Virus record (IMG/VR): IMGVR_UViG_3300037063_000214
DNA length: 64,000 nt
Source: a virus
Direction: 5' to 3' (one strand)
In this document: positions 22,643 through 49,293 of the stretch, in pieces
Position numbering within the stretch: position 1 is the stretch's first letter
How the letters are laid out: each line of letters begins with the position of its first letter
Notes under the pieces: model-generated
What the model saw: the letters and a program-made list of their open reading frames with translations, nothing else
What the model was told of the DNA's origin: nothing
The model's database searches: none
Translations under genes and position numbers: made by a program

Positions 22643-22978
22643 TTAGTCCATAGACTTGTATATTGAGTATACCAGCTTAACGGTGACAGACGCAAGTGCA
22701 GCCATCACTAAAATTGATACAAAATAGTCAATTGGAGCCCAACAAGAGATCACGATTGGGTGATAAATACACACCAAAATAGCCGCAATCCACTGACTTG
22801 TACACCATGGGCAGGAAAGCAATTCGTCCAGCCAAGGGCTACGTAAACGTAACGCAGCATGTAGAGGGTTAAATATCGCCCCTTGGGTGATCAATGCACT
22901 CAGAGCACCACACGGGATGCTAAGGTATACCAGTTGGAATAAAGCGGATAAATTCATGGCTCTATGTGTCCGATACAA
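22643..22978 (-). CDS. small membrane protein (CPWCxSxW motif)
   Basis: 111-aa hydrophobic ORF. Confidence 0.4.
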   Translation of the reverse strand: MYRTHRAMNLSALFQLVYLSIPCGALSALITQGAIFNPLHAALRLRSPWLDELLSCPWCTSQWIAAILVCIYHPIVISCWAPIDYFVSILVMAALASVTVKLVYSIYKSMD

Positions 22979-23262
22979 TTATTGTAAAGACAGGCGTGGC
23001 AAGAACAACCCACTCTACAAGCTTGAATACGAGGTTTTTCAGCGCTAAATGATAAATCGGTGTACTGCCCAGTGTTAGGGCAAACACCCCTTGTGGAACG
23101 TATATCAATTTCAGTGTACTGAATTTCGAATCGCTGACGGGGATTTGAGATCTCATACAATTCACCCACAATGTCGCCTACAGGGTCAAGATGGATATTG
23201 ATCGGAGAAATACCTTTTCCTTTCTTTACAGGAATTGCCGGTTTTGTTTTCTTTTCCTGCAT
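22954..23262 (-). CDS. hypothetical Cys-rich protein
   Basis: 102-aa ORF. Confidence 0.3.
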   Translation of the reverse strand: MQEKKTKPAIPVKKGKGISPINIHLDPVGDIVGELYEISNPRQRFEIQYTEIDIRSTRGVCPNTGQYTDLSFSAEKPRIQACRVGCSCHACLYNNCIGHIEP

Positions 23263-23471
23263 TAGCGAACCGATTTCTTTTTAGCTATTGCTACACAACA
23301 GGGTGCTCTAAAATATTCTGGTATATTCTGGTTCGGGTGTTCAATTTCTTCAAGCTCCTTCAAAATATCATCCGCATCCCCTATGTCAATATTTGCATCG
23401 AGAGTTGGACCATGATTTTCTTGAGGGCGAGGTTTCTTTTCTTGTGGTCTTTCTTTTTGTACTTGAGACAT
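23262..23471 (-). CDS. Pup-like small protein lacking the C-terminal GGQ/GGE (possible Pup mimic or ARC-binding adaptor)
   Basis: MSQVQKER...DIGDADDILKELEEIE...EYFRA resembles M. tuberculosis Pup (MAQEQTKR...TDDLLDEIDDVLEENAEDFVRAYVQKGGQ), but ends ...APCCVAIAKKKSVR. Its start abuts the stop of the ARC-like ATPase. Confidence 0.45.
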   Translation of the reverse strand: MSQVQKERPQEKKPRPQENHGPTLDANIDIGDADDILKELEEIEHPNQNIPEYFRAPCCVAIAKKKSVR

Positions 23472-24983
23472 TTAGGAATCATACCTCTGTTTTGAACTTG
23501 GAATTGGAACAGCTACCAGTTGTGCCGTAGGTGAAGATGGAGAACGAACATCGATCTTCACCCCGTTATGGTACTGCTCCATAGCTGTTACTTGCAATTT
23601 TTGATTCTCAACGAACTCTCGTAGCTCATCCATGTGATTCATACCATACTGCTCTTTATGCATAGCTGTTAAAGCAATGTCGAAATCTTTTTGACACAAC
23701 CCATCAATATTTTTAGCGTCATTATTACGATCAATAGCAACCGCCGAAGCTCGCTCTACAATACCAGCGATGAGCGCTCCACTGACCAGACTACCTAAAC
23801 TGAAAACCCTAGTTCCTATAGTTGTTTCCAATTTATACAATGGATATTGTTCGCTAAAAAGTCTTTCATTGGTAGTTTTAATCAATTCCTCAGAGCTGAC
23901 CCCCTTGGATAAAGGAACATTCCGCATATGAATATTCCAAATGGATGGCGCATTTTCCTTCGTTGGGGGCGCTACATAAACTGGTCGATCTATACGCCCA
24001 GGACGAATTACAGCGGGATCCAGCGTATCAGCCCGATTGGTTGCCAAAAGCACAAAAGTCCCGCTATCTTCAATTCCATCCATTTCAGAGAGAAATTGGG
24101 GAACAATGGTTTGCTCCATGCCAGCGGATGTGCGGCTTCCCCGGCGCATTAAAATAGCATCTGCTTCATCAATGAATAAAATAGCAGGGTACCCGTATTT
24201 TTTGTAGTGGCGTTTACAAAAATCAAATGCCAAACGAATTTGACTTTCTGACTCACCTACATATTTATCTAAAATCTCCGGCCCTTTAATGTAAACAAAT
24301 CCGGATTCCACTGATTCTTTGCTGTGCATACGAGCCAAGGAACCTGCGGCCGCTCTTCCGATGAGCGTTTTACCGTTCCCTGCGCGACCCCACAAAAGAG
24401 CCCCTTTAACTTCTTTTTTGTGGAAATACTTAAAAATATCTTTTTTAACATAAGGAGTTTCCAGCGCTGCAATAATTGCCTTTTTAGCATCTTCGCATGC
24501 GCCAATATCATCCCAGGTTAAAACTGCATTCGTTTTAAAGGCAAATTTAGAAGTCTGATTTATTTTTTTGATGATGACATGGTTTGTACTGTCCATGATC
24601 ACATGATCCCCAATTTCCACGGGGACGGTAGCGTAATCAGTAGCCAATATACCAGATGGGGTATTAAGTTGGATTGTTTTATCGTCTATTTGGACGACAG
24701 TTCCAGATACCCCGTAAGTAGTGTAGTCGCTTACCCGAACAATTTGTCCCGTTTCGGGATGAACGTCTACTGACATTCCTACTTTTACTGGGATAGAACT
24801 TTCAACTTGATCTAACTCAAAAACTTGATTTGCCGTAACTACAATCACCGATTTATCCAAAACAGCGGTAACGACTCCCACATGATAAGCGGCGGCGGTG
24901 AGGCGTTTTAAAAGATTTTGCTGCTCCGTAATCTTTTCACGAGCATTATTGACAACAGCGATTTCCTTGTCAGTCATCGACAT
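23472..24983 (-). CDS. proteasome-associated AAA+ ATPase, ARC/Mpa-like (N-terminal coiled coil, tandem OB domains, AAA module)
   Basis: Walker A GRAGNGKT, Walker B ILFIDEAD. The AAA region aligns closely with Mpa, including the Mpa-specific inter-domain segment (SLARMHSKESVESGFVYIKGPEILDKYVGESESQIRLAF versus SLAKKM...[30 protein letters not shown]). Confidence 0.8.
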   Translation of the reverse strand: MSMTDKEIAVVNNAREKITEQQNLLKRLTAAAYHVGVVTAVLDKSVIVVTANQVFELDQVESSIPVKVGMSVDVHPETGQIVRVSDYTTYGVSGTVVQIDDKTIQLNTPSGILATDYATVPVEIGDHVIMDSTNHVIIKKINQTSKFAFKTNAVLTWDDIGACEDAKKAIIAALETPYVKKDIFKYFHKKEVKGALLWGRAGNGKTLIGRAAAGSLARMHSKESVESGFVYIKGPEILDKYVGESESQIRLAFDFCKRHYKKYGYPAILFIDEADAILMRRGSRTSAGMEQTIVPQFLSEMDGIEDSGTFVLLATNRADTLDPAVIRPGRIDRPVYVAPPTKENAPSIWNIHMRNVPLSKGVSSEELIKTTNERLFSEQYPLYKLETTIGTRVFSLGSLVSGALIAGIVERASAVAIDRNNDAKNIDGLCQKDFDIALTAMHKEQYGMNHMDELREFVENQKLQVTAMEQYHNGVKIDVRSPSSPTAQLVAVPIPSSKQRYDS

Positions 24984-25051
24984 TTTTGTTCCTCAAATCT
25001 TAGATGCTGAGTTTACCATAAAAGAATAATACTTTTCTAGGTCACAAGCTG

Positions 25052-25822
25052 CTAGTTCGGTTCGGGTAGCTTGGTAGGAAATAAGAATGTAAACTCAGCA
25101 GATGAAATTTCTTTGCGTTTACCATCGGGATCAGCAATAAAATACTGCTTTGGGTCATAACCCCTAATCTCCCCAGAAAGCTTCTCCCAAAGCTTTACCT
25201 GCCGCACTTTTTCGTAGCCTCCGAACTGCTGGCCCACCTTGTAAGCAGCATCATCTTCAGTCTGCACCACGTAGCCTCCGAACTGCGTATACTGACCCAC
25301 CTTGTAAGCAGCATCATCTTCAGTCTGCAACACCCGTTTTGCTAAGTGATATTTATATTGAAGTTTGTCATGCCATTTTGGGTGAGCGATTTTAATATTT
25401 GGAAGGCGTTTAAGATTTGTGAGGAGGTCTGCGATTTTAACTAGTCTTCCGCCTTTCGACGCGCGGGCTCGATAAATAAAATCACGATAAAATTCTTTTA
25501 TTCCATCGGATTCACGTCGGGTAACGGAATCTACGATATCTGCAACCACATCTCCGAATTCTTTACGAACCTGATCAAGAGAAAAATCAGTGTCTTCAAC
25601 CACATCGTGAAGTACAGCCGCTACTAAAAGTTGCTCTTTTGTAGCTCCATATAAAACGGGAAGGCAACAATCTGGAGTTTCATTGGGGGCACATTCCAGT
25701 TCTTTTTTTACAGCAAACATGACCTCTAAGCTGTGAAGAATGTGAGGGTCACCATCCGAGTCTATTTGCCCATGGTGTGCTTTCAGCGCCAGCTCAATAG
25801 CTATTTCGAGTAAACTACTCAT
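25052..25822 (-). CDS. HD-domain (p)ppGpp hydrolase-like protein (small alarmone hydrolase / Mesh1-like), with an internal 16-aa tandem duplication
   Basis: HHGQ...DPHILHSLEV and AAVLHDVVEDTD match the RelA/SpoT HD hydrolase signatures. A 48-bp tandem DNA repeat near 25215-25310 encodes a duplicated ...TEDDAAYKVGQ. Confidence 0.7.
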   Translation of the reverse strand: MSSLLEIAIELALKAHHGQIDSDGDPHILHSLEVMFAVKKELECAPNETPDCCLPVLYGATKEQLLVAAVLHDVVEDTDFSLDQVRKEFGDVVADIVDSVTRRESDGIKEFYRDFIYRARASKGGRLVKIADLLTNLKRLPNIKIAHPKWHDKLQYKYHLAKRVLQTEDDAAYKVGQYTQFGGYVVQTEDDAAYKVGQQFGGYEKVRQVKLWEKLSGEIRGYDPKQYFIADPDGKRKEISSAEFTFLFPTKLPEPN

Positions 25823-48645: not shown

Positions 48646-49293
48646 TTAAGAAAAATACTTCCGGCGAAACATTCCAGCGATCCCTACGAGTCCTGTTCCC
48701 AACAGACCTAAAGTCCCTGGTTCAGGGGCGGAAATACTCGTAGAACCAAGCCCAATGTGCCCCACACCGCCATTCAATTGATTCTTGTTGAGTATATTGA
48801 TGGTTTGGGTAGTGTACCCAGTTGTAAAACGCCCATTCCAGAGTGTTCCAGACAACTCACCTGTTAAAGTGTAGGTTCGCTCCTGTTTATTTTGGGAGAT
48901 GAATGTCCAGTCAATAGGACCTACAAAGCTGCCGATAAAAATATTTCCCTTAGGTTGTCCAAATTTACCCTTACCGATAACATCGAAAGTGGACCCGGTA
49001 CTGGAAAATACCCCACCGTTTAGCACGCTTCCGCTTTCTAGCACGCCGGTAGAAAACCCTACATAACCAAGCGAATGCCCATGCGGAGCGGTTATTCCTT
49101 CAAAGTTTGTTAGCTCCGAACCGTGAGATGTAATGGTAGTTGAACCAATCGTGCCCATTCCACCTACGCCGATATCGCTAATACTTATGGTGCCGAATAG
49201 ATTCGTCAGAGTGATGGGATCGGCAGATGCCGCGGAAACAAACGAAAGCAAACTCAAAATTAACGCAAAAATTGTTACCTTACTTATTCTCAT
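48646..49293 (-). CDS. secreted PEP-CTERM domain protein
   Basis: N-terminal signal peptide. C-terminal PEP motif (APEPGTLGLLGTGLVGIAGMFRRKYFS: PEP, TM helix, basic cluster). Confidence 0.7.
   Translation of the reverse strand: MRISKVTIFALILSLLSFVSAASADPITLTNLFGTISISDIGVGGMGTIGSTTITSHGSELTNFEGITAPHGHSLGYVGFSTGVLESGSVLNGGVFSSTGSTFDVIGKGKFGQPKGNIFIGSFVGPIDWTFISQNKQERTYTLTGELSGTLWNGRFTTGYTTQTINILNKNQLNGGVGHIGLGSTSISAPEPGTLGLLGTGLVGIAGMFRRKYFS

Follow-up and report, generated by a model that had tools for sequence, protein, structure and literature searches.

Mpa and PAN dock onto their partners through their C-terminal tails, and the GQYL tail of Mpa docks on the 20S proteasome. To our knowledge, Mpa/ARC together with Pup is regarded as characteristic of Actinobacteria and of a small number of other phyla, always tied to Dop/PafA and usually to a 20S proteasome. 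In corynebacteria, pupylation operates without a proteasome, and ARC disassembles pupylated ferritin. Here, we analyzed a 64-kb stretch of DNA (hereafter the window) from the IMG/VR record IMGVR_UViG_3300037063_000214, which is apparently part of a huge-phage genome of roughly 450 kb. The window encodes an Mpa/ARC-type AAA+ ATPase, a 69-amino-acid (aa) Pup-like protein with a Cys-containing tail, a 102-aa Cys-rich paralogue of this protein, and a small membrane protein of the DUF1360 family (Table 1). Around 55 related loci in huge phages, Candidate Phyla Radiation (CPR) bacteria, and Bacteroidales pair an Mpa-type ATPase with a conserved Pup-like protein that appears unligatable. Our leading but tentative interpretation is that the small protein is a membrane-tethered, ligase-independent, Pup-like handle for the unfoldase. 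In the searchable literature, we found no description of this module, nor of a link between DUF1360 and Mpa-type ATPases or Cys-tailed small proteins.

As judged from profile searches and a predicted structure, the ATPase is of the Mpa/ARC type, a class of hexameric AAA+ unfoldases, and not a generic FtsH/CDC48-like protein. Its top NCBIfam model is TIGR03689 (pup_AAA), which is matched with 246.3 bits over residues 6‒446 (model positions 19‒483 of 512), while the CDC48 and PAN models score 171 and 153 bits, respectively. The score falls below the TIGR03689 equivalog cutoff of 504.75 bits, at about half of its value. For comparison, we used locus L095 of an uncultured bacterium as a positive control. 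This locus carries a complete divergent Pup-type cassette (positions 7263‒12456), in which genes for an Mpa-like protein, a Dop-like protein, a 66-aa protein ending in ...EFLRATRQRGGQ, and a PafA-like protein follow one another in that order, all below their NCBIfam cutoffs. Since the authentic Mpa of L095, which is encoded beside Dop, Pup, and PafA, also reaches only 255.9 bits, the TIGR03689 cutoff seems to be tuned to Actinobacteria, and the window ATPase is as Mpa-like as the L095 Mpa (246 versus 256 bits).

The domain order of the ATPase is consistent with this assignment. In the AlphaFold2 (AF2) model, which was built on 30 homologues and has a predicted local distance difference test score (pLDDT) of 82, an N-terminal helix (residues 5‒28) is followed by two β-barrels (residues 34‒84 and 90‒141) in a tandem OB-like arrangement and by the AAA module (residues 155‒445). 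The 30 best Foldseek matches of this model in the PDB are all Mycobacterium tuberculosis Mpa structures, aligned over approximately 470‒500 columns with E = 1e-34 to 1e-27, and proteasomal Rpt subunits rank after them. When aligned with CDC48-type ATPases, the window ATPase shows an insertion of approximately nine residues after Walker A. The Mpa/ARC layout and the ARC-type insertion, both of which had been proposed in the initial annotation, are thus borne out, as is the separation from generic AAA proteins. In the alignment of ATPase N-termini, the helix terminates in a conserved LTAPAY hinge. The N-terminal 154 residues gave no match against PDB sequences, and the likeness of the N-domains to those of Mpa is visible only at the profile and fold level. 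Across the 30 homologues, Walker A (GxxGxGKT), Walker B (DE), the pore loop (K-[YFW]-V-G), sensor-1 (TN), and the Arg fingers (RxxR) are invariant. Since all of these motor residues are kept, the ATPase should be an active translocase.

The ATPase gene stands at the head of a tightly packed gene series. The ATG of the 69-aa gene abuts the stop codon of the ATPase gene in the same frame (TAAATG), the stop codon of the 69-aa gene and the start codon of the 102-aa gene share nucleotides (TAATG), and the ATG of the DUF1360 gene overlaps the stop of the 102-aa gene (ATGA). Judging from these junctions, the ATPase, the 69-aa protein, the 102-aa paralogue, and the DUF1360 protein are encoded by a four-gene, translationally coupled operon. 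The three open reading frames (ORFs) of the initial annotation, which comprise an HD hydrolase-like gene, the ATPase gene, and the 69-aa gene, were confirmed at their coordinates, all on the minus strand. The unit does not end at the 69-aa gene as had been assumed, since the 102-aa paralogue and DUF1360 continue it downstream.

The 69-aa protein consists of a basic N-terminus (MSQVQKERPQEKKPRP), an acidic helix (DADDILKELEEIEH, residues 32‒45), the Cys pair C58-C59, and a basic tail ending in Arg (...APCCVAIAKKKSVR). It has no GGQ/GGE ligation end, terminating instead in ...CCVAIAKKKSVR, as had been noted earlier, and the C-termini of its relatives are CxC, CCCC, ...GG[FWL]R, or acidic tails. 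Orthologues of the 69-aa protein are present in the sampled relatives whose ATPases are 60‒70% identical. A word-based search for the 69-aa protein found only five close relatives. We also read the DNA downstream of ATPase homologues at 32 IMG/VR, 12 metagenome, and 58 genome loci, and a small ORF of 55‒105 aa is located downstream of the ATPase at nearly every locus read. Common to these small ORFs are a basic N-terminus, a segment rich in Gly and Pro, and an acidic helix that follows the pattern (V/I)P-x-(V/I)DD(I/L)L-x-E(L/I)D. A hidden Markov model (HMM) of the N-terminal part of the family was searched at E ≤ 1 against 12,422 six-frame ORFs from 101 loci, whose ATPases span identities of 33‒100%. 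Of the 56 matches, 55 are located immediately behind the ATPase gene; the lone outlier has E = 0.9. (Six of the 55 were flagged as lying elsewhere by our script, solely because long ORF calls overlap the end of the ATPase.) By these searches, the small-protein family has essentially no members other than those encoded immediately downstream of this ATPase. Together with the TAAATG junction and the orthologues, this distribution confirms that the abutting 69-aa gene is real.

The resemblance of the small proteins to Pup is confined to the acidic helix. Approximately 30 disordered N-terminal residues precede an acidic amphipathic helix, which is positioned as the Mpa-binding helix is in Pup, and the DADDILKELEEIE segment of the 69-aa protein aligns with TDDLLDEIDDVLEE of Pup. 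An AF2 prediction of the natural in-frame fusion of the ATPase and the small protein is consistent with disorder, since the small protein has a pLDDT of 29‒39 and forms a helix only at residues 34‒42. With two versions of the family profile, Pup was the best match among 177,635 PDB sequences, with the helix start aligned, and with the second profile three Pup constructs were among the five best matches. HHalign was run against an alignment of 24 Pups and the Pup-like ORF of L095, and it aligned family positions 32‒51 with Pup positions 33‒52 (probability 78%, P = 1.8e-5). None of 200 column-shuffled Pup profiles scored above 13.4, as against 26.4 for the real profile. A column-shuffled alignment of the small proteins, intended as a second control, gave erratic outliers from gap-rich columns and was not used.

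Beyond the helix, the C-terminus of the small proteins varies. In the phage and CPR members, it ends in CxC, CCCC, or CC(GG)n, for example CTCW, CGCF, CGCG, PCGC, or ACGCFGG, and in the clade of the window the CxC is followed by approximately 8‒10 residues ending in Arg. Two Cys columns are invariant in our alignment of the small proteins (alignment A2), and C58-C59 of the 69-aa protein is the counterpart of the CxC/CCCC of the family. The 102-aa paralogue has the same N-terminal module, followed by a C-terminal C-x3-C-x-C-x2-C-x4-C-x-G-H cluster (CRVGCSCHACLYNNCIGH). Its family aligns with the small-protein family over the N-terminal 36 columns (HHalign probability 87%, P = 3.7e-6), and orthologues of it are present at L004, L005, and L038‒L040.

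The Cys tails track the membrane protein encoded at the end of the operon. The window DUF1360 protein matches PF07098 with 27.2 bits (cutoff 21), and we know of no function described for this family. It carries the motif CPWCTSQW (residues 49‒56, nucleotides 22790‒22813) at the predicted cytoplasmic start of transmembrane (TM) helix 2. In 25 DUF1360 homologues, CxxCxSHW is kept at the start of the second of three hydrophobic segments, and it is predicted to be cytoplasmic by the positive-inside rule, since a conserved K/R-rich loop precedes it. Of 65 loci, 29 encode DUF1360 downstream of the ATPase, and in each case the two genes share a strand. All 30 informative loci have a CxC-tailed small protein together with DUF1360, and the only two loci that have a CxC tail without DUF1360 are on contigs that break off immediately behind the small gene. 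No DUF1360 gene is present at the 17 Bacteroidales loci with Cys-free small proteins, or at two loci with self-contained 3-Cys small proteins. Antisense shadow ORFs within the ATPase gene excepted, DUF1360 is the sole other family common to the phage and CPR loci, while the other recurring neighbors of the ATPase are clade-specific and belong mainly to a Bacteroidales operon. On the basis of these sequence comparisons, the Cys tail is a conserved feature that tracks DUF1360.

Neither the enzymes of pupylation nor a proteasome accompany the module. When 47 window ORFs, among them all those longer than 400 aa, were scanned with Pfam, neither PafA/Dop nor a 20S subunit was found. A tblastn search with authentic Dop and PafA as queries found neither in the window nor in the approximately 100 fetched loci, with flanks of up to 10 kb per locus, except in the control L095. 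No protease is conserved near the ATPase at 65 loci. These results agree with the earlier statement that the window has no recognizable Dop/PafA or 20S proteasome gene.

Compared with described Mpa/ARC proteins (TIGR03689; PDB 5KZF, 5KWA, and 7PX9), the window ATPase is similar in fold, domain order, motor residues, and the insertion after Walker A. It differs in having a short N-terminal helix, no GQYL/HbYX tail, and no Pup, Dop, PafA, or PrcAB gene in its neighborhood. The small proteins share with Pup (PF05639) and UBact a length of 60‒80 aa, predicted disorder, and an operon with an Mpa-type ATPase, and the family helix (V/I)DD(I/L)LxE(L/I)(D/E), starting at about residue 32, aligns with TDDLLDEIDD of Pup. 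Unlike Pup, they have no GGQ/GGE end and no associated ligase or deamidase, their N-terminus is basic, and they end in a Cys cluster that co-occurs with a membrane protein. The gene order is also different: the small gene directly follows the ATPase gene here, whereas the Pup-like gene lies between Dop and PafA in L095. The corynebacterial ARC is a precedent for an ARC-type unfoldase that works with a Pup handle and without a protease, resulting in unfolding or disassembly. However, that system uses covalent pupylation by PafA and Dop, whereas no ligase is evident and no ligation end is present at the window locus.

We consider that the small proteins may serve as ligase-independent handles, as Pup does for Mpa. 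The acidic helix would dock on the N-terminal coiled coil of the ATPase or on the entrance formed by its OB domains, and the basic, disordered N-terminus would enter the ATPase pore. In place of GGE ligation, the Cys tails would link the small proteins with DUF1360 in the inner membrane. In the CD4/CD8‒Lck zinc clasp and in the Rad50 zinc hook, two chains each contribute a Cys pair to a Zn site. By analogy with the CD4/Lck clasp, the tie may be a metal ion shared between CxC and CxxC; alternatively, it may be a disulfide. The arrangement would resemble the zinc clasp in that CxC is on one partner, CxxC is on the other, and one of the partners is a membrane protein, and the strict co-occurrence of the two motifs fits such a pairing. 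The analogy is mechanistic and not one of homology. As a result, the unfoldase would be recruited to the membrane, or a membrane complex would be pulled, leading to remodeling or extraction rather than proteasomal degradation.

Several observations weigh against this interpretation, most of them concerning the likeness to Pup. The Pup matches in the PDB are individually not significant (E = 0.12‒1). The reversed Pup profile still scores 20.2, as compared with 26.4 for the real one, suggesting that much of the Pup signal is that of a generic acidic amphipathic helix, and homology with Pup is therefore unproven. No Pfam, NCBIfam, or PHROG model matches the 69-aa protein, and the Pup (PF05639) and UBact models gave no match at E ≤ 10 in a scan of 21 family members. 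Since NCBIfam also fails to detect the Pup-like protein of L095, which is genuine but divergent, the missing model match is weak evidence against a kinship with Pup. An exhaustive HMMER search of 1.84 billion representatives with a close-clade profile gave four clusters, all of the same family and none of them Pup. The N-terminus of the family is basic (mean net charge +2.4), whereas that of Pup is acidic (−3). Concerning the ATPase, its N-terminal helix of approximately 25 residues is far shorter than the Mpa coiled coil, and the AF2 fusion model shows no confident docking of the small protein, which is weak evidence either way because the model is a monomer based on a shallow alignment. The correlation between CxC tails and DUF1360 may stem from no more than two or three separate events in evolution. 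Finally, the search of the phage for ligase and protease genes covered 64 kb of a genome of roughly 450 kb, and either may be encoded in the remainder.

The initial annotation had also matched "EYFRA" in the 69-aa protein with "DFVRAY" in Pup. The closest relatives carry ...EHPEKYTQEQRDCGC... at this position, and since the residues are not conserved even there, the match is probably due to chance. What stands of the Pup likeness is the acidic helix at the matching position and the disorder, and not this match or any match to a Pup model. Taken together, the likeness of the small proteins to Pup is that of a positionally matched, acidic amphipathic helix, which is compatible with both distant homology and convergence.

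A rather unlikely alternative is that the small Cys-tailed proteins are cargo and not handles. They may be metal-binding or redox peptides, or precursors similar to ribosomally synthesized and post-translationally modified peptides (RiPPs), which the ATPase would unfold, free of metal, or pass on to DUF1360. DUF1360 would then insert or export the peptide, and the Pup-like helix would be only a recognition element or leader. The conserved N-terminal module with variable Cys-rich C-termini, the paralogues with 3‒6 Cys/His residues, and the strict coupling of the Cys tails to a CxxC-bearing membrane protein would all suit a cargo. One Saccharibacteria module, in addition, adjoins genes for CopA-like, HMA-DsbD_2, cupredoxin, VIT1, thioredoxin (Trx), and DsbB proteins. 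However, this metal/thiol-redox neighborhood recurs at no other locus, and we regard it as a coincidence rather than as functional. The neighborhood of the ATPase contains no conserved modifying enzyme, transporter, or peptidase, and the Bacteroidales small proteins are Cys-free yet still paired with the ATPase. A protein of approximately 105‒145 aa with three TM helices, such as DUF1360, is also small for a channel.

It is likewise unlikely, in our estimation, that the likeness to Pup is convergent or coincidental and that the small protein regulates the ATPase, for instance as an inhibitor, an assembly factor, or a lid, by binding away from the coiled coil and the pore. DUF1360 would then be a mere anchor or an unrelated neighbor. 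The score of the reversed Pup profile, the missing Pup model matches, the N-terminal charge opposite to that of Pup, and the AF2 fusion model would all agree with convergence. On the other hand, Pup was repeatedly the single best PDB match, the N-terminus and the helix are spaced as they are in Pup, and the co-occurrence of Cys tail and DUF1360 at 30 of 30 loci argues against an unrelated neighbor.

More improbable is the explanation that the ATPase serves as regulatory cap for a protease, whether 20S-like, HslV/ClpP-like, or of another kind, whose gene is located elsewhere in the phage or host. A conserved C-terminal tail would dock on this protease, with the small proteins serving as tags for degradation or as adaptors. 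Such a cap would be compatible with a ligase-independent handle. The C-terminus of the window ATPase (nucleotides 23472‒23560, minus strand) is disordered and ends in ...IPSSKQRYDS. In 38 of 105 full-length homologues, a disordered linker carries a conserved tail, ...Q-V-V-A-I-P-I-P-x3-5-K-[YF]-D-[AS] (...VVAIPIP..K[YF]D[AS] in short); an alternative tail is ...SK[LIV]N, and members of the close clade terminate in one or the other. By its sequence conservation the tail looks like a docking motif, and docking by C-terminal tails is established for Mpa and PAN. It is not an HbYX motif, however, since its aromatic residue is at position −3 rather than at the penultimate site, and only 2 of the 105 homologues have a penultimate Y/F and fit HbYX. 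Furthermore, the tails of other clades differ, and no protease was found among the 47 window ORFs scanned with Pfam or conserved near the ATPase in the 65 loci.

Least probable is the proposal of the initial annotation that the small protein is a non-conjugatable Pup mimic by which the phage blocks, saturates, or redirects the Pup‒Mpa‒proteasome pathway of its host, with or without its own ARC: the phage setting, the missing ligation end, and a Pup resemblance lying exactly in the Mpa-binding helix would suit such a decoy, but the same pair occurs on Bacteroidales chromosomal contigs and in CPR genomes with no Dop/PafA nearby, the small protein is never seen without its own ATPase, the conserved Cys tail and DUF1360 would have no role, and the phage ATPase is without the GQYL tail that it would require for the use of a host 20S proteasome.

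The recognition of a disordered handle by ARC-type unfoldases may predate covalent pupylation or be independent of it. It is conceivable, although on balance doubtful, that the module is a ligase-free counterpart, or possibly even a forerunner, of the Pup‒Mpa system, in which disordered handles recruit the unfoldase by their Pup-like acidic helix and a cysteine or metal clasp to DUF1360, in place of an isopeptide bond, links the handle to its target. If this were true, the recognition of a disordered tag by Mpa-type ATPases would exist outside pupylation, which bears on the origin of Pup, and the clasp, if it holds, would represent a novel means of joining a handle of the degradation type to a target. 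The CxC tail and the CxxCxSHW motif of DUF1360 may represent a new coupling between a handle and a membrane target and may provide the first functional lead for DUF1360. The module is also a new candidate function for accessory genes of huge phages. As the system comprises only four small genes, its in vitro reconstitution should be feasible.

The module is found in huge-phage contigs of up to about 450‒530 kb in IMG/VR and the ENA, and one JGI contig of 894 kb is listed for a homologue. It is also present in metagenome-assembled genomes (MAGs) of the CPR groups Saccharibacteria, Woesebacteria, and Parcubacteria and in one gammaproteobacterial MAG. At one of the CPR-MAG loci, the context is apparently chromosomal, with RNase III and TrmB. 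At L108, the DUF1360 homologue also carries PF07098. A 96-aa protein (MNPKRTNGFVVGFDTPSKGRTVWKV...) is encoded directly upstream of the ATPase at the Saccharibacteria-type loci L108 (9533‒9823), L048, L051, L069, and L082, and it is conserved among them with 60‒74% identity. At L008, L016, and L074, the small protein is absent, and the ATPase is followed by a protein of approximately 385‒490 aa beginning with ...LSEA.EAL.GHDEFA.K.YDG..., which may be an alternative partner of the ATPase. 

A version of the pair with a Cys-free small protein is encoded on many Bacteroidales chromosomal contigs of 0.2‒1.1 Mb. There, the small protein has 55 aa and an acidic helix (MKRRFRQKQD...IDIDDVIxEID...) and contains no Cys. 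The operon, which is seen at L052 (530‒9433) and 16 other loci (L053‒L072), encodes an OmpA-domain protein, a 285-aa protein, TelA, an NMT1-like binding protein, an ABC permease, an ABC ATPase, the ARC-like ATPase, and the small protein, in that order. It appears to be an uncharacterised envelope-associated system. A link between this operon and the ABC transporter genes of the window (13310‒17937) was suggested by single-linkage clustering, but pairwise comparison gave only generic ABC ATPase matches, and we dismissed it. Likewise, the "proteasome-associated ATPase" of Brevundimonas phages was rejected as a relative, since these proteins share only the AAA core and are without the small-protein or DUF1360 module.

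The HD gene upstream of the ATPase is a neighbor of the module. Its product matches HD_4 (PF13328) with 36.1 bits (cutoff 27.2), the N-terminal hydrolase part of spoT_relA (1.3e-13), and phrog_990 (3.7e-32), and it carries the HD/ED catalytic motifs (...AAVLHDVVEDT...). Two segments of 42 nucleotides in the gene (25229‒25270 and 25292‒25333) are 95% identical, and there is also an exact repeat of 17 nucleotides. The duplication is in-frame, spans about 57‒63 nucleotides (25213‒25333), and is located in the C-terminal extension of the protein; it was missed by Tandem Repeats Finder and confirmed by a direct-repeat search. From these repeats at the DNA level, the tandem duplication is real and recent, and the SpoT-like hydrolase with an internal duplication that had been described from the sequence is upheld. 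The HD gene is directly upstream of the ATPase gene in each of the six close-clade loci that extend far enough (37‒45% identity) and not in the distant loci. By family and synteny, the HD protein is a member of the common phage family phrog_990 and a syntenic neighbor, not a core component of the module. Directly upstream of the HD gene is the gene for an 863-aa protein (25855‒28446, minus strand). This protein and a 968-aa protein (55734‒58640, minus strand) have no Pfam, PHROG, or PADLOC match.

Table 1 Features of the ATPase locus in the window, with the evidence for each assignment.
Feature	Position	Strand	Length and evidence
HD hydrolase-like protein, SpoT/Mesh1-type	25052..25822	-	256 aa; HD_4, spoT_relA, phrog_990
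Mpa/ARC-type AAA+ unfoldase	23472..24983	-	503 aa; TIGR03689, AF2, Foldseek
N-terminal helix of the ATPase (residues 5-28), presumed short coiled-coil arm	24900..24971	-	AF2 secondary structure
Pup-like small protein, predicted disordered	23262..23471	-	69 aa; family HMM, HHalign, AF2
Cys-Cys pair (C58-C59) of the 69-aa protein	23295..23300	-	Invariant Cys columns, alignment A2
Cys-rich paralogue of the 69-aa protein	22954..23262	-	102 aa; HHalign, orthologues
DUF1360 membrane protein	22643..22957	-	104 aa; Pfam PF07098, three predicted TM helices

The other genes of the window, which include ThyX, RNR, NAD-ligase, TnpB, Thg1, methylases, and a sigma factor, suggest that it is part of a huge phage, and a syntenic relative of the window is located on a 458-kb contig. 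Among sequenced phages, megablast found no close DNA relatives of the window and tblastn found no match to the DUF1360 protein; in tblastn searches of phage records, none covered at least 80% of the ATPase. With the PADLOC defense models, the ATPase gave only generic AAA matches (IetA and TRIP13), and the other genes gave none.

Outside the operon, an 826-aa ORF (2708‒5188, minus strand) has Major Vault Protein domains (MVP_shoulder, 3.6e-26; Vault_3, 1.8e-8). Such a vault-shell-like protein is unusual in a huge phage and may point to a protein compartment. A 161-aa protein (28491‒28976, minus strand) corresponds to the N-terminal domain of dATP/dGTP diphosphohydrolase (PF18909, MazZ-like) and is kept in the syntenic 458-kb relative; it may indicate manipulation of the nucleotide pool or a modified genome. 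A TnpB/Cas12f-like protein (37260‒38309, minus strand) matches Cas12f1-like_TNB (4.4e-21) and OrfB_IS605. A PEP-CTERM-motif protein, a sigma-70 family factor, and a dual-specificity protein phosphatase are encoded at 48646‒49293, 49421‒50080, and 46945‒47580, all on the minus strand, and the C-terminal PEP-CTERM sorting motif hints at a Gram-negative, exosortase-bearing host. A Thg1-like tRNA-His guanylyltransferase (34989‒35834, minus strand; 2.8e-23) and an RlaP-type nucleotidyltransferase (1598‒2431) suggest that the phage carries genes for RNA repair or editing.

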